DNA of 58,018 nucleotides. It comes from a virus (lineage: Duplodnaviria > Caudoviricetes). The stretch spans positions 1 through 58,018 of the IMG/VR virus record IMGVR_UViG_3300032335_001124. One strand, written 5' to 3'. Shown here in pieces: positions 21,965 through 33,010 of the stretch (position 1 is its first letter; every line of letters starts with the position of its first letter). A model generated the notes under the pieces. The model saw only the letters and a list, made by a program, of their open reading frames with translations. It had not been told where the DNA came from and made no database searches. The translations under genes and the position numbers were made by a program.

Positions 21965-22882
21965 TTAAGCGGCGTCTAAGAACAAGAGCTTCTGACGGAA
22001 AGCGTCAGGGCTCATTTGACTCAGATAACGCCAAGCTTGCTCGGGATTCTGATTCATGGTTTGGGAGAAACCATTCCACTGAGTGTCAGGATCGTTGCGA
22101 ACTGCGCCTGCAGAAGCAGGAACAGCAGGCATGTCATAACGAGGTTGATAAGCTGCTTGCTGAGCAGGATAACCAGAGTTATCTGCATCTACTGGATACA
22201 CTTCGGTGAAGAACCGGTTGGTGTAATCAGCTAGTTGATCAGGATCAGTAAGAATATGCTCCATTGCAGCGCCACGTGTGGCGATGGAGTTCATATTTTC
22301 GTTCTGAGCAATCAGAGCGTCTTCGAGAGTAACAGCATACTGATTAAGGATGCCGGGAGCCTCGATGCCGAAGTGATTAACGACTTGAGCGCTTGCGGGG
22401 CTTAGCTGGGGGGCTTGGCTGCGCCCCGTAGAAGCCTGAGAGGAAGCTTGGGTCGTAGAGACGTTGTTGGAGTAAGTCGGGGCTGCCGTAGGCGCTTGGT
22501 ACGCCCATGGTTGGGCCTGTAAAGGCTGACTGTACTGAGGAATAGCCTGTTGCGTCGTCGCGTATTGTGGAGACGGTGCTGTTTGGCTGGGGAGTGGTGA
22601 CATCCTGGACACCACCCGCTCCAGGCTGCCCATTGCTGCTTCCCACGGATTGTTCGGGGAGTAAGCGGACGGAGACTGGTTGTACTGGTTGCTGGTAGAA
22701 AGGACCGAACCCTGTGTTGCCTGCGACGGCATTTGGGCTGTAGGTACCGAAGCTACCGCCGGGGTACTGGTTTGCGCCACCCACTGCGGGTAAGCGGTTG
22801 AGCCCTGGTCCATTGCTGGCGCCGCCGAGGGGGCTGCTGCCGCTACCGGGCTCGGGATCGAAGCTTGGATCTGCTGGCTCAT
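21965..22882 (-). CDS. putative capsid scaffolding/assembly protein
   Basis: Lies between portal and MCP; P/Q/A/S-rich disordered N-terminus and helical C-terminus. Confidence 0.6.
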   Translation of the reverse strand: MSQQIQASIPSPVAAAAPSAAPAMDQGSTAYPQWVAQTSTPAVASVPTAQMPSQATQGSVLSTSNQYNQSPSAYSPNNPWEAAMGSLERVVSRMSPLPSQTAPSPQYATTQQAIPQYSQPLQAQPWAYQAPTAAPTYSNNVSTTQASSQASTGRSQAPQLSPASAQVVNHFGIEAPGILNQYAVTLEDALIAQNENMNSIATRGAAMEHILTDPDQLADYTNRFFTEVYPVDADNSGYPAQQAAYQPRYDMPAVPASAGAVRNDPDTQWNGFSQTMNQNPEQAWRYLSQMSPDAFRQKLLFLDAA

Positions 22883-24611
22883 AGCTACCCGAGTAGGTTA
22901 GTTCTTGCGCGAGGTGGTCAAACGTCCTGTATAACAGGGGCGTTATGTTTAATCTAGGGTCAGCCCCTAAGGGTTGATCCGGGGCGAGAGGATGTGGCGT
23001 TTGCAACATCTGTGATAATAATACTAAAAATTGTTGCATTGCGCTTTGAGTTTGTTGGATCATCCTGAAAGGAAATCCTTTTAACATTTCTTCTCGCTCA
23101 GTATCCGTCTTATCCGGGAATAAATAACGTAAAGCTTCGACACTGTCAACTCCTAATTCCTGCAAATTTCGGACAACAATAGACTTTTGGTTTATGTCGT
23201 AGGCCGTGTCCTCATAGACATCGCCTTGGAAGCGGTACGCAACAGTACGATCTCCATCTGGAGGTAAACCAAAAACACCACGTGGGACTGCAGAAGTTGA
23301 AAGCGCTTCTTGCATCATCTGTTTTAGTTTTTGGTCAAACTTTTGCTGTTCTACTTCAAAGCGAATTGTCTCTTCAGATGAATCATCGGCAACAGGTTTA
23401 GGCTTTTTGAGCTTAACAACAGCGGCAAAACTATCTTTAAAAGTTTCTTCTTGGTGGTAGAGAATCATCTCCAACAACTTACAGAACCCGTACACCAAGA
23501 AACTTTTATTTTTTCTTAGTGCTGTGGCTTGAGCGCGACCCATCAAACCCTTAATTTCTGTGGCAGTGGCACCAGCAGAAACTGAAATTTCATCAACACC
23601 TCCTAATGCTGTCCGAATTTCTTCACGCAGCATTAAAGCCCATCGGTTCATGTCCCCGTTAACAGGGTCTGGTGTCATGTAACCAACACGATCCGAAGGC
23701 TCGACGTTGGCAATAATTCGAGGGACTCTCAGCCCGCCCATCAAACCACTGGAACCAAAAGGCTCGCTTACTCGTGTCGAGGGGGTATCGCGACCAGCAA
23801 ATCCACTTTGACTACTAATTGTTGGACGGAAAGTGCGATCAGAGTCGCTAGCTTCGACAAGATCACTACGAGGACGCGAACTAATAAGTGTCGGATTACC
23901 AAAAAATTCAATATTTTTAGCAATGTTCGTATTTAAGGTGTCATGAAGAACAATTTGTTCCATAAAAGGTTCAAATTCGCCTTCACCAGAAGTACCACTA
24001 CTGTCTGGTTTGTTAAGAACCTCAACAGCAGGTATAAATCCAAGTGTATTTTCTCGCGTATTTCTTGAAGTGACGAGTCCTCCTGGCTCCAGGTCAAAAC
24101 TCAACTCTGTATTAGACTCAAATTCAGATATACGTTCTTCGGTAATAGAAATTCGGACATAGCGTTCGTTTAAACCTGCTGTGTCAGAAGGTAAACCAAT
24201 GTTAGAACTACGAATTTTATATTTGTAGATTATTACAACTTCATCTAAGTTTCCGTTTACATCGTGGTAAACACGATACTGATCTTTAGAAAAAAAGTAT
24301 ATTTGATACTTTAATTTGGGGTCAGGTCGAAAATAAAATAAACCACATCCGTCGATTAAAAAATTACGAATAATCGAAGGAAAACGAATATCAATTTTAT
24401 TTAAAGTAATCAAGCTATCTAAAAATTTAGATCTAGCTTTATAAGTGTCTTGTTCACAATAAAAAGTCAAGCCCTTCTTAATCATCAACAGCGTCATTTG
24501 CTGGATGTGACTAAGAACGACTAAAGTAGACGCTTGCTTGGATCTATCTTGAGTCCGCGAAGCCTCAAGAATTTCTTGAAAGCGTTGACGGACTCCGATC
24601 TGGTCGGCCAT
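22377..24611 (-). CDS. putative portal protein with a long low-complexity C-terminal tail
   Basis: Size and position between terminase and scaffold; LGFIPAVEV.N and SA.ATATEIK resemble portal motifs. Confidence 0.7.
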   Translation of the reverse strand: MADQIGVRQRFQEILEASRTQDRSKQASTLVVLSHIQQMTLLMIKKGLTFYCEQDTYKARSKFLDSLITLNKIDIRFPSIIRNFLIDGCGLFYFRPDPKLKYQIYFFSKDQYRVYHDVNGNLDEVVIIYKYKIRSSNIGLPSDTAGLNERYVRISITEERISEFESNTELSFDLEPGGLVTSRNTRENTLGFIPAVEVLNKPDSSGTSGEGEFEPFMEQIVLHDTLNTNIAKNIEFFGNPTLISSRPRSDLVEASDSDRTFRPTISSQSGFAGRDTPSTRVSEPFGSSGLMGGLRVPRIIANVEPSDRVGYMTPDPVNGDMNRWALMLREEIRTALGGVDEISVSAGATATEIKGLMGRAQATALRKNKSFLVYGFCKLLEMILYHQEETFKDSFAAVVKLKKPKPVADDSSEETIRFEVEQQKFDQKLKQMMQEALSTSAVPRGVFGLPPDGDRTVAYRFQGDVYEDTAYDINQKSIVVRNLQELGVDSVEALRYLFPDKTDTEREEMLKGFPFRMIQQTQSAMQQFLVLLSQMLQTPHPLAPDQPLGADPRLNITPLLYRTFDHLAQELTYSGSYEPADPSFDPEPGSGSSPLGGASNGPGLNRLPAVGGANQYPGGSFGTYSPNAVAGNTGFGPFYQQPVQPVSVRLLPEQSVGSSNGQPGAGGVQDVTTPQPNSTVSTIRDDATGYSSVQSAFTGPTMGVPSAYGSPDLLQQRLYDPSFLSGFYGAQPSPPAKPRKRSSR

Positions 24612-24646: not shown

Positions 24647-24799
24647 TTAAGCTTTTTTACCTGCAGCTTTAACTTTTTTAGCTTTCCTCAAAGCTTCCTT
24701 ACGCTTCTCCATTTTTTCTTCCTTATCTCCATGTTTACCCTCGTGCTTTGCCTTATTGGCAAAGTGCTCACGGAGTTGTTCGGGCATCTGGTTAGCCAT
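24647..24799 (-). CDS. small Lys-rich protein (50 aa)
   Basis: Hand translation: MANQMPEQLREHFANKAK...ALRKAKKVKAAGKKA. Confidence 0.55.
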   Translation of the reverse strand: MANQMPEQLREHFANKAKHEGKHGDKEEKMEKRKEALRKAKKVKAAGKKA

Positions 24800-25634
24800 C
24801 GGGAAGCAGATAATTTCTTACTCTATCTAGTTTAAACAACTCTGGCGGTAATAGGTCATGTGGGTACGCTTGTAAAATATGATCTTTTCGACCTAAAGGA
24901 TCTGTACTCCCCGGTAAAGCTTTATAAGAATCTAAAAAGTCTAACATTTCTTGGCTGTAGGCAGGAGCATGTGCGTTAGGGATATCGTCGTAGCAATGAG
25001 AAAACGATGTGAGTTTTCGTTTCATCCGAGCCGAGTCACCCATCCAAGAAAAATGCCAACCGCAATCGCAATCCCCCACAACAAGGCCATTGTCCTTCAT
25101 TCGGATTTGCGAAGGTGTTTCTTCTAGGTGATTGTATAAAACCACGGTGCCACAAGTCCAGTTATTTGGGGGTTTGGAAGGATCACCTTTCGGATCAATA
25201 ACTCTAAGATCTGCCCTCCCGTAAAACATAGGCATCGACAGACGTACACACCGGTCTGGATTCGCTTTCGCAATTTCGACAGCTTGTAAAACCGCCTCCG
25301 GTTTCGGTATTTCATCGACATCACTAAAGAAAAAGACGGAATCTGGTGGAGTTAAGCGCATCCCCACAGCGAGAGCGTCGCGTTGTGCGTATTCCCGTAC
25401 CCATGGATTAGGAGCTACTTCCTTAGAAGGCAACTCAACGTGAAGAACTTGTATTTTTTCCTCAGGTAAACCTAGTTCTCGAATCGTATCAAGACAAGTA
25501 AAGGGTTTTGGGTCCCCTTTAAACGTCAAATTTCCATCCGTAATGATAAAGCCGTCAACAATATCCTTTAAAAGATTTACCCTTAGTTCAAGGAGTTCTT
25601 TTTCGTCAAAATATAAAAAACAATCGTAGAGCAC
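24792..25634 (-). CDS. GT17-like glycosyltransferase (beta-1,4-GlcNAc transferase family)
   Basis: YDCFLYFDE.ELLELR, QRD, SDVDEIP and GWHFSW motifs. Confidence 0.8.
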   Translation of the reverse strand: MLYDCFLYFDEKELLELRVNLLKDIVDGFIITDGNLTFKGDPKPFTCLDTIRELGLPEEKIQVLHVELPSKEVAPNPWVREYAQRDALAVGMRLTPPDSVFFFSDVDEIPKPEAVLQAVEIAKANPDRCVRLSMPMFYGRADLRVIDPKGDPSKPPNNWTCGTVVLYNHLEETPSQIRMKDNGLVVGDCDCGWHFSWMGDSARMKRKLTSFSHCYDDIPNAHAPAYSQEMLDFLDSYKALPGSTDPLGRKDHILQAYPHDLLPPELFKLDRVRNYLLPDG

Positions 25635-28170: not shown

Positions 28171-30702
28171 TTAGTACTCTATTGAATAATTGCCTCGCCT
28201 TTGTAAATAAGTTATTAAATGCGTGTATGCGTCTAAAAGGTCGTCGTGCGACGTTGCCCCCACATTTATAATCTGATCAAACAACGCATCAAATTTTCTA
28301 TATCTGTTAAACACAATTTTTTTATTTTCTAGCAAACCTAGCGTCCCTCTAAAACGAGCTATTTTATCTCCTCTAAAACCGTTAACTTCATGAATATGTA
28401 AATTACTCAATCCCCTCTCATTTAACAAAACTCTTCTAAGGTCCGCCGCTAAACTCGCTTGGTAAGCAACTGACTCAACTACTAGCGTAACCGTAGAATA
28501 AGTCGGAAAATACGTATCGTTCTGAAAAGATAAGATTCCCCATTCAAGTAGCATATCGCACAGCAAATCTATTTTTTCTAAATTTCCAATAGACCGACAT
28601 TGGTGAGAATCAATAATGAAGTATTTGTCTTTAAGCCTTCCGCCTAAAACAAAAGCTGTATAGTCGCTGGTTTCATTTCTACTTGCGGATAAATCAATAC
28701 CGATAGCCAGCGAATCAAATTCAGTTTCAACTTCAGCTCGAACAAGCAAGTCTGGAGAAACAATTAAATCCGTGGTTAACACCGGCTGTTGCTGGTACTG
28801 GAAAGCAAATGCCACAGGGTCGAGTTCTTTCTGACCGAGTAAGTACTGAACACTCCACTGCTCAGGCCAATAACTTACGGGGTTGCCTTGATTGTCGTAA
28901 GTGACAGCTTCTTGTGTCACTTGTTTCCAATTTTTTTCCGGCGCAAACATTGTTTTATGTATATCTAACGGGTGAAAACGTGTACCTAAACAAATAGCTC
29001 TACCCCCTTCAAAAATAATTGGTGCGATAACAGATGACCAGTTGTTGTTCATTTCATCTCTAATAGCAGGGTTTCGTATATCGGCGCTGCTCTTGATGGG
29101 GTCGTCGATGAAACAGTTGCTTACAACAAATCCATTCGCAATAAAATTATGATCTGGATGGTCTATTTCAAGGTCATAGACAATGTGCGTTCCTCCGCTA
29201 ATTTTTTCAACTCCGGAAACGGTGAGGGTCTCCCAGCTTTGTCTGTAACCTGATGGTGAGCCACATGGCATTGACGGCAAAGCGTTATAAGATTGCAAAA
29301 AATGTTGTTTGACCGATCGTGATCTATGTGATGAACACACAGGTTTGTTCGCACTGTCCCGTCTTTTGTAGATAACTTCTTCTCCTTCGTATTGCAACCG
29401 ACACAGATGAAACTGTCCCGATTTAAAACTATCTTCCTCTGTTTTTTGAAGTCTCCTATATAACCCCCATGCTGGTAATTTGGGTTGTCCACACCGGTCA
29501 TTTTTTTGGAATGATTTAAATCTGCACACTGGCGAGAACAAAACTGTGTCGTATGCGATGTTGGGCGAAACCTTTTGTTGCAATACAGACACACCTGAGG
29601 TTTTAAAATTTGCTTCACCTGCCCCGCACAAGTCCGAGAACAACACAGAATTTTTTGATCGGTGCTTAATCTCTGAGCTAAACGGGAAGACATAACCGTG
29701 AATATCTCCTGACAACAGGGGCATTGAATCTCTACTTGAAATTTTCCTAGTTTTTGCCAACAAGTTGTACAGATTCTTTGTGTGCGTTGTTTTGCCTGAC
29801 CGCAACTCAAACAAACTTTTAGTTGATTCGCAGGCGGATACTCCGATAAGGGTTTGCCCTGTACTAATATCTCCCGCCCATTCGTACCCTTGGTCTGTCG
29901 TAAGGAAAGGATGCTCGGGAGTTGCGGAAATATAACGGTTATCTGTTGTTCTAATTCGAACAATTTTTGAGGAACAACGCCGTGTAGCTGCTGCCACGTC
30001 GCTCCAATCAATTTGATGTGTTTTTGAGTTTCTGACAGCAATTTGGAAGCGTCCTGGGTCTGCATAAATTTTTTTAATTGGCTGTTCGCCTTTATCTGTC
30101 AAGATTAGTGTATCGCCCGTAAGACACAAGTGTGCGCGTTTTGAGGTAATTGATCCTCTAAGACCTGCAGCGCGTAATGTGAATTCTTCGTCACCTACTC
30201 TAGGAATACCTGCGTATTCAAAATCAATAGACCAACCAACGTCACTTTGCATACCTGGTTTAAGCCTGCAATTAGGAAATATTTTTTTAAACTCAACTGA
30301 GTCAACAATTTGTTTGATAATTCGACTTTTAGGAATAGCAGTAGCAATGTTGTAAGAAATGTAAATTATCTGTAAGGGCATTTTTGCTGCTGTATGTCTT
30401 CCTATACACCACGCAGTAAACATATTTAACACGGTACTTTTCGCTGAACCCCTGGGGCTTAGTATATCAAGGTTTGATCCTGCTATATCTAATAAGTACT
30501 TATTGCTTTCATTTGTTATCAAGTGTGTATACCACTCCAACATATGTCTTGCTGGAGGTTTATCTAAAAGAGTACAAAACGTTTGAAAATCACCCGCTGC
30601 TTTGGTGTAAATAGAGTTCTCTCTTGTGCTCGAATCTTCAACAGCGCGAACAGCATTTAACTGAGCCCGGCGACGATAAGCAAAAGTTTCCCGGCTAGGC
30701 AT
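28171..30702 (-). CDS. terL: terminase large subunit (506 aa after intein removal)
   Basis: Walker A PRGSAKST, Walker B L|CFIDD, GTRFH, RNase H-like GIDLS..DYT and HDDLLDA. Confidence 0.92.
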   Translation of the reverse strand: MPSRETFAYRRRAQLNAVRAVEDSSTRENSIYTKAAGDFQTFCTLLDKPPARHMLEWYTHLITNESNKYLLDIAGSNLDILSPRGSAKSTVLNMFTAWCIGRHTAAKMPLQIIYISYNIATAIPKSRIIKQIVDSVEFKKIFPNCRLKPGMQSDVGWSIDFEYAGIPRVGDEEFTLRAAGLRGSITSKRAHLCLTGDTLILTDKGEQPIKKIYADPGRFQIAVRNSKTHQIDWSDVAAATRRCSSKIVRIRTTDNRYISATPEHPFLTTDQGYEWAGDISTGQTLIGVSACESTKSLFELRSGKTTHTKNLYNLLAKTRKISSRDSMPLLSGDIHGYVFPFSSEIKHRSKNSVLFSDLCGAGEANFKTSGVSVLQQKVSPNIAYDTVLFSPVCRFKSFQKNDRCGQPKLPAWGLYRRLQKTEEDSFKSGQFHLCRLQYEGEEVIYKRRDSANKPVCSSHRSRSVKQHFLQSYNALPSMPCGSPSGYRQSWETLTVSGVEKISGGTHIVYDLEIDHPDHNFIANGFVVSNCFIDDPIKSSADIRNPAIRDEMNNNWSSVIAPIIFEGGRAICLGTRFHPLDIHKTMFAPEKNWKQVTQEAVTYDNQGNPVSYWPEQWSVQYLLGQKELDPVAFAFQYQQQPVLTTDLIVSPDLLVRAEVETEFDSLAIGIDLSASRNETSDYTAFVLGGRLKDKYFIIDSHQCRSIGNLEKIDLLCDMLLEWGILSFQNDTYFPTYSTVTLVVESVAYQASLAADLRRVLLNERGLSNLHIHEVNGFRGDKIARFRGTLGLLENKKIVFNRYRKFDALFDQIINVGATSHDDLLDAYTHLITYLQRRGNYSIEY
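29116..30126 (-). mobile_element. intein (337 aa) inserted at the terminase Walker B strand
   Basis: Block A CLTGDTLILT, block B ATPEHPFLT, blocks F/G VYDLEI..DHNFIANGFVVSN followed by Cys+1. Confidence 0.92.
29163..30065 (-). CDS. Zn-finger/HNH homing endonuclease encoded out of frame inside the intein
   Basis: Multiple CxxC motifs, FCSRQC, G..NPNY..G and RD.F.CVGC...VHHIDHDRSNN...NLITLCRQCH...H. Frame is offset by 1 from terL. Confidence 0.85.
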   Translation of the reverse strand: MQTQDASKLLSETQKHIKLIGATWQQLHGVVPQKLFELEQQITVIFPQLPSILSLRQTKGTNGREILVQGKPLSEYPPANQLKVCLSCGQAKQRTQRICTTCWQKLGKFQVEIQCPCCQEIFTVMSSRLAQRLSTDQKILCCSRTCAGQVKQILKPQVCLYCNKRFRPTSHTTQFCSRQCADLNHSKKMTGVDNPNYQHGGYIGDFKKQRKIVLNRDSFICVGCNTKEKKLSTKDGTVRTNLCVHHIDHDRSNNIFCNLITLCRQCHVAHHQVTDKAGRPSPFPELKKLAEERTLSMTLK

Positions 30703-30756: not shown

Positions 30757-31929
30757 GTGGCAAAAGTACTCTGGTACGGAGATGCATGTTCTAACACAGG
30801 ATTTGGTCGTGTAACAACTAGCGTACTAGAACACTTACAGAAAGAACATGAAGTAGAGGTTATAGGAATCAACTATAACGGAGACCCTCATGATCTTCCC
30901 TATAAAATTTATCCAGCATCAAACTTAGCTTGTCCGGATCGTTTTGGTATTCCACGGCTACCGGAGTTGATCGACAAGATTAAACCTGATATTTTTATCT
31001 GTTTAAATGACGTTTGGATTGTAAATCAAGTATGGGAACGCATTCAATTCCTGAAAGATCAGTACAAATTTAAGTTTATTGCTTATTTTCCTATCGACAG
31101 CGAAGCTTATTACCCTGAAATGTTGCGGAATATTCCGCATTGGGACTTAGCCATAACATTTACAGTTAACTGTGCTCATAGAATTCTTAAACATAACATC
31201 CAACCAAGCAGGCTAGGTGTGTTACCCCACGGTGTAGACACATCTAAATTTACTCCTATGCCTCGGGATGAAGCTCGCGATGCACTAGGAATTCCAAAAG
31301 ATAAATTCATAGTTTTTAACGGGAATAGAAACCAACCTAGGAAACGAATAGATCTGACAATACAGGCTTTTGCTAAGTTTGCAATTGGAAAACCAGATAC
31401 AATGCTTTACCTCCACATGGGGGTAAAAGATCTAGGTTGGGACATAACCGCTTTATTTAAACGGGAAATGTCTAAGTACGACCTAGACGACAAACAAAGA
31501 TTGATTTTGACATCGAACGAAATAAATTATATTGCGGCTCCACCTGACGATTTATTAAACAAAATTTATAACTCATGCGACGTTGGTTTAAACACCGCCG
31601 ACGGGGAAGGTTGGGGTTTGGTTAGTTTCGAACATGCCAGTTGTCGTAAGCCGCAGGTGGTGCCAAACCATACGGCATGTAAAGATATTTGGGAAGGGGC
31701 TGGCCTGCTTATCGATATTTCTACGTGGGTAACGGATAAAGATCTAGGTGTAGAAAGAGGTTTAGTTGATGTAGACGACGCGGCAGCACTACTTACATCC
31801 TTATATAACGATAAAGAAACTTACGATACAGTAGCTGACGCTTGTTTTGATGTAACGCAACGTAACGAATATCGTTGGGAATCCGTTTCAATGGGATTCA
31901 CTAAAGCCATCTCTGATCTCCTCGCTTGA
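30757..31929 (+). CDS. GT4 family glycosyltransferase
   Basis: TGFGRV, PHGVD, NRNQPRKRID and EGWGL..FE motifs. Confidence 0.88.
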   Translation: MAKVLWYGDACSNTGFGRVTTSVLEHLQKEHEVEVIGINYNGDPHDLPYKIYPASNLACPDRFGIPRLPELIDKIKPDIFICLNDVWIVNQVWERIQFLKDQYKFKFIAYFPIDSEAYYPEMLRNIPHWDLAITFTVNCAHRILKHNIQPSRLGVLPHGVDTSKFTPMPRDEARDALGIPKDKFIVFNGNRNQPRKRIDLTIQAFAKFAIGKPDTMLYLHMGVKDLGWDITALFKREMSKYDLDDKQRLILTSNEINYIAAPPDDLLNKIYNSCDVGLNTADGEGWGLVSFEHASCRKPQVVPNHTACKDIWEGAGLLIDISTWVTDKDLGVERGLVDVDDAAALLTSLYNDKETYDTVADACFDVTQRNEYRWESVSMGFTKAISDLLA

Positions 31930-31930
31930 T

Positions 31931-33010
31931 ATGCAAACTACATTCCGCTTTCGCCACGTCAATTCAGACGTAACCTTCCCTATAAAAAAAGAATGCGAAG
32001 GCATTCCCAGTGTTTATAGACAAGCCGAAAACCTTAAAGGTAGTTTTACAAGAATTGTTTACGGTTTACCCAAAGATAGCGTGGGTAATTTTAGCCCTTC
32101 GATCCTACAACACAATAAAAATACCTATATTGCCTGGAGGTCTCAACCCGAACCTTTTGGTTTTAAGTACGACAATAACTATTACTATTTAAATAACACA
32201 CCTACAGATATTTATCTAGGTCAACTAGCTGATGATTGCACGGTTCTTGGGGCTAAGAAACTACGCTCCACGCCGCACCGACTTAGCTACGAAGACCCTA
32301 GGTTGTTTGTGGGACCAGATGAACAGATGTACGTACAATTTGTTACTTCTAAATATGCCAGTAAGTACGACTTAAAAGGTAAAAAGCTATTTGATTTCCC
32401 TAAAGTAGCAGTCTGCTACGTTGATCAAACAGGGGAAGCAGTCAGCGCTGCGATTCCGCCTATAGGAAAAAATAGGATTAAAGGCGAAACAGAAAAAAAT
32501 TGGTGCTTTTTTTCACATGAGGGTTTGCTGCACTGTCTGTACTCCATCAGACCTTTTGTTATTGAACGAGAAGATAAGACCTCAATAACAATAAACAGTG
32601 ATGTTCTTGAAAATGTAACTAAAGGAACGCCAACGTTCTGTTCGTTGCCGCCGCTAGAAGTAGATGAAGGAAACCTTGTGTTTTATCACTGGAAACACAT
32701 GACGTTTGACCAAAACGGTCAGCCTTATTTGCTTTATCACTTAGGCGTTTTTATGGTAGATAAACAATTTACAAAGATAACCCACGTGGCAAACGAGCCT
32801 TTATTTAGTGGGTCACTGGAAGATACACTAATCACCTGGACAGATTACGTAGGTAATCCAGTTTCCAAACAACCAGCGGTGTTACTACCCTTTGGTGCCT
32901 TTATAGAAGACGGAGAACTTGTAATGTCGCTAGGAGTAAACGACGCTTTTATGGGGATTTTACGTTGTCCTATAGATGAAATACTAAAAAAATTACAAGA
33001 AGTAAGTTAA
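31931..33010 (+). CDS. GH130-like five-bladed beta-propeller (glycoside phosphorylase/mannosyltransferase-like)
   Basis: FSPSI, YEDPRLF, EKNW.FF, P.GA and GVND motifs. Confidence 0.7.
   Translation: MQTTFRFRHVNSDVTFPIKKECEGIPSVYRQAENLKGSFTRIVYGLPKDSVGNFSPSILQHNKNTYIAWRSQPEPFGFKYDNNYYYLNNTPTDIYLGQLADDCTVLGAKKLRSTPHRLSYEDPRLFVGPDEQMYVQFVTSKYASKYDLKGKKLFDFPKVAVCYVDQTGEAVSAAIPPIGKNRIKGETEKNWCFFSHEGLLHCLYSIRPFVIEREDKTSITINSDVLENVTKGTPTFCSLPPLEVDEGNLVFYHWKHMTFDQNGQPYLLYHLGVFMVDKQFTKITHVANEPLFSGSLEDTLITWTDYVGNPVSKQPAVLLPFGAFIEDGELVMSLGVNDAFMGILRCPIDEILKKLQEVS

Follow-up and report, generated by a model that had tools for sequence, protein, structure and literature searches.

The large terminase subunit gene (terL) of the IMG/VR virus record IMGVR_UViG_3300032335_001124, a 58,018-base sequence estimated to be 72% complete and analysed here in its entirety (the window), very probably harbours a mobile intein, inserted at the Walker B motif, whose homing nuclease is overprinted on the splicing element in the +1 reading frame. 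The gene encodes an 843 amino acid (aa) precursor in which the N-extein, intein and C-extein form one open frame (28171..30702; minus strand, as are all features of the gene described below), recognised from the open reading frame (ORF) list, a match to phrog_38 (E value 9.2e-68) and the Pfam domains Terminase_6C and Intein_splicing. The intein itself spans 337 codons (29116..30126), from Cys1 (CLTGDT; TerL residue 193) to Ser-Asn337 (Asn337 being TerL residue 529), and contains a 300 aa ORF (29163..30065) that starts 637 nucleotides (nt) past the TerL start, placing it in the +1 frame, and that comprises an N-terminal domain, three Cys4 zinc ribbons, an HNH core and a C-terminal tail. These coordinates and frames agree with those in the initial annotation of the window. 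The closest cultured-phage record for the combination of terL and nested HNH ORF is that of Synechococcus phage S-EIVl.

In the mechanism we propose, ribosomes on terL would read straight through the intein, the two ends of which (~98 and 42 residues) would form a Hint splicing domain, the ~197 residues between them serving as an unstructured tether whose sole requirement would be the lack of a stop codon. The intein would then splice out, restoring the sequence LCFIDDP. Other ribosomes would start within the same messenger RNA (mRNA), most likely at a conserved ATG at position 30065, and so produce the 300 aa protein, which, in co-infected cells, would cut terL alleles that have no intein, with repair of the break copying the element into them.

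Maintenance of two overlapping reading frames

Across the TerL coding sequence the +1 frame is interrupted by 38 stop codons, yet between nt 602 and 1538 it runs for 311 codons with none; 75 are found in the +2 frame. Shuffling the synonymous codons of the HNH ORF, such that both the protein and its codon usage were retained, introduced 17.1 +/- 2.8 stop codons into the TerL frame, where none is observed, and none of 20,000 shuffles was stop-free; re-encoding the HNH protein with the codon usage of the exteins gave 25.1. The reverse shuffle, of the TerL-frame codons, generated 5.5 stops in the +1 frame, again against an observed count of zero, with two of 20,000 being stop-free. With the observed counts so far below those of the shuffles, selection must be holding both frames open.

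A search of IMG/VR with the HNH ORF identified 34 loci of 55-99% identity, three of which were cut by contig ends. Among the 31 assessed, the TerL frame was open across the element in every case, and in 28 the HNH frame ran for 304 codons or more without a stop, leaving as exceptions one locus with a stop codon in the HNH frame (L028) and two with a 378 nt in-frame deletion (L037 and L038). The full-length set, consisting of the inteins of the window, S-EIVl and 29 viral contigs, contained 31 copies, 25 of them unique; despite nucleotide identities of 56-99%, all 31 were exactly 337 codons long with zero indels, and in 30 nothing interrupted the HNH frame along the homologous span. In light of these data, two compensating indels that mask an ordinary intein with its HNH in frame are a vanishingly improbable explanation. 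The same indel-free frames recur in 29 independently assembled contigs and an isolate genome, which makes shared compensating errors not credible; an intein with its HNH in frame would have no need of an open TerL frame through the HNH region, where 17.1 stops would be expected; and homologues in cultured phages of Brucella, Gordonia and Ralstonia share the +1 offset.

The two frames are not constrained equally along the element. Mean pairwise diversity was calculated by codon position for the 25 unique sequences: intein codons 1-30 and 311-337 exhibit the third-position excess of the TerL frame, over codons ~31-310 it is the first TerL position, equivalent to the third position of the +1 frame, that is most variable, and over codons ~31-100 diversity is low at all three positions. 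Changes within five close clusters were also classified by their effects on the two proteins and compared with a neutral expectation. Over codons 101-310, those silent in the +1 frame and altering TerL were greatly in excess (194 observed versus 69 expected; 2.8x), those silent in TerL and altering the +1 protein were fewer than expected (56 versus 78; 0.72x), and those altering both were rarer still (65 versus 148; 0.44x). The corresponding values for codons 21-100 were 36 versus 19.9 (1.81x), 26 versus 20.2 (1.29x) and 20 versus 34.5 (0.58x), and in the last 16 intein codons the TerL frame dominates. The few changes counted as creating stop codons (seven in the middle region) are an artefact of scoring single changes in the reference context where neighbouring bases co-vary, as no TerL frame has a real stop.

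Between intein codons ~31 and 310, selection therefore acts at the protein level on the HNH frame, the TerL frame alone is selected solely at the two splicing ends, and both frames are under selection over codons ~21-100. Approximately 240 nt encode two constrained proteins, and a further ~630 nt encode the nuclease with the TerL frame merely stop-free. The initial annotation had considered all 903 nt of the nested ORF to be double-coding, and had proposed comparing selection per frame in homologues; this comparison places the HNH frame under selection as a protein and, with both frames being open over the full 903 nt, refines the original view in that only codons ~21-100 are selected for the amino acids of both, codons 101-310 needing just to be free of stops in TerL. 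The possibility that the +1 ORF is an untranslated relic, left open by chance or by constraint on TerL, can be given virtually no weight: purifying selection on the +1 protein is evident from the wobble pattern and from the classes of substitution, its catalytic residues do not vary, stop codons build up quickly once the HNH core is deleted, and only two of 20,000 reverse shuffles left the +1 frame open. The element is real and under selection.

Features of the intein and the nested HNH ORF

The N-extein (30127..30702; TerL residues 1-192) ends in ...SKRAHL, as defined by alignment with S-EIVl TerL and intein-less alleles, and the C-extein and stop codon (28171..29115; defined by the ORF list and alignments) begin with Cys+1, TerL residue 530, in the Walker B sequence CFIDDP of the TerL ATPase. 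The boundaries of the intein inserted between these two sequences are supported by its precise absence from a closely related allele (L046) and by the Intein_splicing match (E value 1.3e-13; 51.5 bits, relative to a cut-off of 35.8), which falls on the two ends and is the sole Pfam hit in the TerL frame, consistent with the earlier observation that the middle of the intein has no endonuclease motif in this frame. This match, together with the beta-rich ends of an AlphaFold model, indicates a Hint domain.

The N-terminal splicing part (codons 1-98; 29833..30126) includes Cys1, the nucleophile expected of a class 1 intein (Cys or Ser), which does not vary among 13 aligned inteins and was seen in each of the 33 TerL genes of this group. 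The block B motif of inteins is Thr-x-x-His, which is represented here by T69-P-E-H72; each of T69, P70, E71, H72, P73 and F74 is invariant in the same 13 inteins. The C-terminal part (codons 296-337; 29116..29241), extending from VYDLE to HNFIANGFVVSN, has invariant V316-E320, H323, H326, N327 and the terminal N337, displays TerL-frame wobble from codon ~311, and terminates in Ser-Asn, after which Cys+1 of LCFIDDP is found in 33 of 33 TerL genes. In the AlphaFold prediction for the TerL-frame intein, based on 13 sequences, the pLDDT score (predicted local distance difference test) is 79-89 over residues 1-98 and 85-88 over residues 296-337, falling below 50 for residues 99-295. This linker (29242..29832) is predicted to be disordered and, on the evidence of the substitution classes and stop shuffles, is stop-free and unconserved as a protein, such that the TerL-frame product is modelled as a mini-intein with halves joined by a disordered tether of ~197 residues. 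A group I intron was considered for the same interval and ruled out by the open TerL frame and the conserved Hint blocks.

The +1 ORF is similar to 12 PHROG families of HNH proteins (best E value 9.8e-9). Residues 85-180 (29526..29813) contain three zinc ribbons of the form CxxC...CxxC or CxxxC, in which all 12 cysteines (85, 88, 99, 102, 115, 118, 142, 146, 159, 162, 176 and 180) are invariant. In the catalytic core (residues 217-271; 29253..29417), D217, C221, C224, H245, H246, N258, C263, H267 and H271 do not vary across 43 sequences of identity as low as 26%, 90% or more of which also retain C266 and N254, giving a His-Asn-His motif with two flanking CxxC pairs of zinc ligands. An AlphaFold model from the 43-sequence alignment has a mean pLDDT of 83.3, with values of ~85-96 for the ribbons and core and 54-86 for the N-terminal 80 residues, and its top Foldseek matches in the PDB are HNH nucleases (McrA 6ghc, Cap5, Cas5-HNH and ScoMcrA); a profile of the whole ORF found no match among PDB sequences. 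The first 80 residues (29826..30065) overlie the DNA encoding the N-terminal Hint part and are constrained in both frames, based on the +1 wobble from codon ~31, the substitution classes and the many invariant columns from L19 to P77. No usable match to the N-terminal 84 residues was found in the ESM Atlas.

Distribution and decay in close relatives

A search with the C-extein identified 80 close terL loci of 84-100% identity. The full-length element was found in ten of these, one of which (L055) was cut by a contig end; four had mini-inteins of 181-185 aa (L051, L052, L058 and L059); and 65 had no insertion at Walker B. The remaining locus (L092; 2-2533), with a C-extein 86% identical to that of the window, contained a divergent 361 aa intein at Walker B with its own 326-codon +1 zinc-ribbon and HNH ORF, indicating that two diverged lineages of the element circulate within one terL lineage. 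The allele from which the intein is precisely absent (L046), reading KRAHL^CFIDDP (carets mark the insertion junctions here and below), has a C-extein 96% identical to that of the window. Cysteine occupies the +1 position in this and five other empty alleles (L047, L057, L060, L061 and L062), and most of the others read H(L/I)V(I/V)VDDP.

The deletions that produced the mini-inteins took out the zinc ribbons, the HNH core or both, and those in L037 and L038 leave inteins of 211 aa. In these six HNH-deleted derivatives terL is still open and the +1 frame has acquired several stop codons, meaning that the +1 ORF is no by-product of the composition of the TerL frame. As judged from sequence comparisons, invasion by a homing element followed by its decay and loss would be expected to produce both the sporadic distribution and the series of decaying copies. 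Similarity to the window also differs between the intein and its host gene: one copy (L013) has an identity of 0.87 in the intein and 0.72-0.77 in the exteins, and another (L014) 0.66 and 0.69-0.73, respectively. Such discordance is no more than suggestive, given the slow evolution of doubly constrained DNA.

A different, canonical intein is present at Walker A (PRG^PLHP...VVS[KS]N^SAKST) in five close relatives of this terL (L096, 1704-4439; L103, L109, L110 and L117) with C-exteins ~85-87% identical to that of the window. It contains an in-frame LAGLIDADG domain (Pfam LAGLIDADG_3, E value 1e-5), and its first residue is not Cys, Ser or Thr, recalling class 3 inteins.

A wider family of Walker B inteins

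The same arrangement is found in cultured phages of other bacteria. In Brucella phage Tb, terL is annotated 'intein present' and Tb_08 'HNH endonuclease, intein-encoded', with an offset of 823 nt that corresponds to the +1 frame; Gordonia phage Clown and Ralstonia phage RS-CA1 have open +1 spans of 380 and 325 codons, respectively, and D^C...HN^C.IIDDP is the insertion site of all three elements. When 1.84 billion representatives were searched in full with HMMER, 2410 relatives of the HNH ORF were recovered at an E value of 1e-3 or below and 149 at 1e-10 or below. Many end in ...SMTSK...TSLQ..YSSTTA, which is the +1 reading of the intein blocks VYD(L/I)xV and (I/L)LVHNC; the corresponding IVYDLEI of the window becomes LSMTLK followed by a stop codon in this frame. 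By a rough pattern match, this 'frame shadow' tail occurs in 81 of 153 proteins.

Eighty viral loci with HNH relatives were collected using a profile of the 'frame shadow' proteins; they are not independent, some being evident duplicates, ten S-EIVl-like, and one a 58,203-base contig sharing the 385 aa intein and junction of Clown. The HNH was nested in the +1 frame of an ORF of ~810-1380 codons with a ...HN^C..DD junction in 78 of these, and in none was it in frame or in the +2 frame. Once duplicates, contig-truncated loci and the S-EIVl-like clade had been omitted (19 loci), 59 of the nested cases were examined further. Intein length ranged from 314 to 385 aa, with a median of 361, in the 47 loci for which the N-terminal junction was found by pattern, and the HNH frame has its first start codon at intein codon 44 (median). 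The HNH ORF stops before the junction in 12 of the 59, as in the window, and extends beyond the end of the intein in the other 47; in 33 of the latter its stop codon finishes 6 nt inside the C-extein, within the Walker B codons, where TGC-CTG-AT is read as GCC-TGA, and hence the motif of the host gene supplies the stop codon of the nested one. That +1 nesting at one Walker B site is common to the phages of Brucella, Gordonia and Ralstonia and to 78 of 80 viral loci implies that it is ancestral and stable.

The remaining two loci (L192, 3273-3908; L193) encode a free-standing 211 aa zinc-ribbon HNH just upstream of a putative small-terminase gene, judged as such by eye from its N-terminal sequence. 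Genes of this type may, from their sequence, be the kind that gave rise to the nested form. That a free-standing HNH gene invaded a mini-intein, as suggested when the window was originally described, consequently seems plausible as an origin, but not as an event in the history of this phage, given the ancestral nesting.

The position of these two genes also bears on the idea that the nested HNH is a helper of terminase packaging, kept for the benefit of the phage rather than acting as a homing enzyme, and a functional link between HNH proteins and terminases has been raised by the authors of a brucellaphage study in the part of that article relevant here (PMC4422536). Such a role is nonetheless unlikely: the whole element is missing from close alleles, including L046 and the 65 of 80 loci lacking any insertion at this site, and intact terL genes carry mini-inteins in which the HNH frame has been destroyed or, in L028, an HNH frame with a stop codon. 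Empty alleles and decayed HNH frames indicate a selfish element passing through its life cycle, rather than an essential helper.

Proposed translation of the nuclease

The candidate start codon of the HNH ORF is an ATG at intein nt 62-64 (30063..30065), which is conserved in 22 of the 25 unique sequences. Conservation of the +1-frame protein begins ~10 codons past it, and few 40 nt RNA windows in terL are less structured than the one at this position (median percentile 0.10; below 0.5 in 11 of 12 representatives). Upstream of the ATG, 22 of the 25 have a +1-frame stop within intein codons 1-9 (codon 17 in L033). From these sequence features, the best reading is that the nuclease would be translated apart from TerL, and Shine-Dalgarno-independent internal initiation on the terL mRNA would be the favoured route, being somewhat more probable than the alternatives taken together.

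Programmed ribosomal or transcriptional frameshifting could instead yield either a fusion of the N-extein, N-terminal Hint part and HNH, through a +1 shift, or a canonical intein, were this followed by a -1 shift. In the window an A7 run (30069..30075) lies directly before the ATG, and two natural proteins (P0022 and P0084) have the N-terminal Hint part in frame with the HNH. The nucleotide alignment limits the A7 run to the clade of the window, so that it is not the conserved mechanism, and no other slippery motif is conserved; the early +1 stops leave little room for a shift, and the conservation of the ATG would not be anticipated. The strong selection for an open TerL frame implies, moreover, that TerL is made by straight reading, as obligatory shifting would not require it. 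Frameshifting is accordingly quite unlikely. The initial annotation had left the separate expression of the nuclease to either internal initiation or frameshifting; an internal start is now favoured by the retained ATG and weak RNA structure, and a shift is disfavoured by the lack of a conserved slippery site and the active maintenance of the TerL frame.

Several observations weigh against a spliced, mobile intein with a separately translated nuclease. The penultimate His of inteins is common in active examples and not obligatory. It is absent from the window, as was recognised at the outset along with the Ser-Asn ending and Cys+1 at Walker B, and S, L or G takes its place in every one of the 33 related genes in the TerL alignment, making the efficiency of splicing in this clade uncertain; the Brucella, Gordonia and Ralstonia relatives have it. 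Within the nuclease, the Pfam matches are below their cut-offs (HNH_3, 14.6 bits relative to 24.8; DZR_2, 19.6 bits relative to 27, with an E value of 7.9e-4), and the best Foldseek E value is 3.5e-3, with none reaching 0.001 and TM-scores of ~0.2 over the whole multidomain model. Three of the 25 unique sequences are without the ATG, having GTG or TTG 4-8 codons downstream instead, no Shine-Dalgarno motif is evident by eye before it, and promoter-like sites are at chance level (six found, 5.9 expected), with no terminator-like site in the same scan. Slower evolution of doubly constrained DNA could in part account for the discordance between intein and exteins. Finally, the HNH is in frame with the C-terminal Hint part and C-extein in P0147 (encoded on contigs of 2.8 and 7.5 kb) and P0154, and with the N-extein and N-terminal Hint part in P0022 and P0084; P0006 is a fusion of both frames. 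These may be real in-frame or split forms, indel variants or errors, and their existence means that out-of-frame nesting is not absolute. No longer form of the HNH turned up when such forms were sought, a result that is weak evidence.

Neighbouring features of the record

The terL gene is flanked by genes for sugar-active enzymes identified with Pfam: a glycosyltransferase family 17 member (24792-25634), a GT1/GT4 glycosyltransferase (30757-31929) and a GH130-like protein (31931-33010). Further away, minus-strand ORFs of 305 aa (21965-22882) and 744 aa (22377-24611) in the mechanical ORF list overlap by ~500 nt, which an alternative start codon upstream may alone explain. No transfer RNA or transfer-messenger RNA genes were found across the whole record (1-58018).

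Implications for intein evolution

Inteins are the textbook example of elements with one frame and one polypeptide. If the interpretation given here is true, the nuclease is made on its own from inside terL, such that terminase could be produced in bulk and the nuclease in traces, with the precursor never bearing a nuclease domain. The predominance of +1 nesting (78 of 80 loci) over in-frame forms (none) suggests that uncoupling the synthesis of the nuclease from that of the host protein is advantageous, and so bears on how inteins gained their endonucleases. Tentatively, for an intein family that is large and old, overprinting may be stable and selected, not a transitional accident, and the first ~80 residues of the S-EIVl-like nucleases might possibly constitute a domain that arose de novo over the N-terminal Hint part, based on their conservation, the selection on their +1 frame, their predicted fold and their lack of a detectable relative. 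Gene finders leave such nested ORFs uncalled; this locus and its metagenomic relatives constitute a natural data set for studying the evolution of overlapping genes and for calibrating such software. As S-EIVl is cultured and has the same element, these ideas can be tested experimentally.

Comparison with known systems

The most similar described element is the terL intein of Brucella phages Tb and Pr (Tb_07/Tb_08, KC556897), which has a homologous HNH (tblastn 33% identity, E value 3e-11), the same Walker B insertion point, the same +1 offset and a TerL frame that is open throughout. It differs in having the penultimate His (VHN), where the clade of the window has S, L or G, in its shorter ORF (an open span of 235 aa) without the conserved N-terminal 80 residues, and in belonging to an unrelated lineage of host phage. 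The brucellaphage HNH is described as out of frame in the relevant part of the source article, which is the earliest precedent (PMC4422536). This had been missed by the initial annotation, whose mention of rare out-of-frame cases in actinobacteriophages is borne out by a 2025 preprint.

As outlined in the available part of that preprint (Gosselin, Arsenault, Gogarten, bioRxiv 10.1101/2025.01.02.630785), actinobacteriophage inteins include examples, many of them in terL, with endonuclease genes outside the frame of the splicing domain, either endonuclease VII-like and in 'frame 3' or on the antisense strand; invasion by free-standing endonucleases is proposed, annotation pipelines are noted to miss such ORFs, and the intein of Clown figures just as the largest class 1 intein. 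These inteins resemble that of the window in the lack of recognisable structure in the middle of the TerL frame, and the same-strand case is distinct in being endonuclease VII-like and in 'frame 3', rather than a zinc-ribbon HNH in the +1 frame that overlaps both splicing ends.

Other systems share individual characteristics. The methylase insertion of phage ShiLan, as presented in the section concerned (PMC11855218), likewise has a zinc-finger HNH that uses a different frame within an insertion lacking stops in the frame of its host, but it is in 'the third frame' of a different host gene, has no splicing domain and is retained in the host protein. Canonical in-frame HNH inteins, such as that in the dCTP deaminase of cyanophage CL131 according to the portion of text covering it (PMC6293099), similarly combine Hint and HNH as one mobile unit in a phage gene, the HNH there being a domain of the intein polypeptide and in the window a separate predicted polypeptide. 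Mycobacteriophage inteins at the TerL Walker B site TerL1-e, likened to that of the window by site alone, occupy the same class of position in the terminase ATPase, and a term search of the 2016 mycobacteriophage survey that reports them found no mention of an out-of-frame endonuclease (PMC5050341). The free-standing HNH of L192 and L193 is of the same family as the nested ORF, and differs from it in being un-nested and without an intein, with a role that may be in packaging and not homing.

Literature searches found no paper describing the element in S-EIV1-like cyanophages. Same-strand overprinted intein endonucleases, so far little studied, are known in print solely for brucellaphages and from the 2025 preprint; what is new here is the member from the S-EIVl-like lineage, the region-by-region evidence of selection, the decay series and the near-universal +1 nesting in a large family of TerL Walker B inteins.

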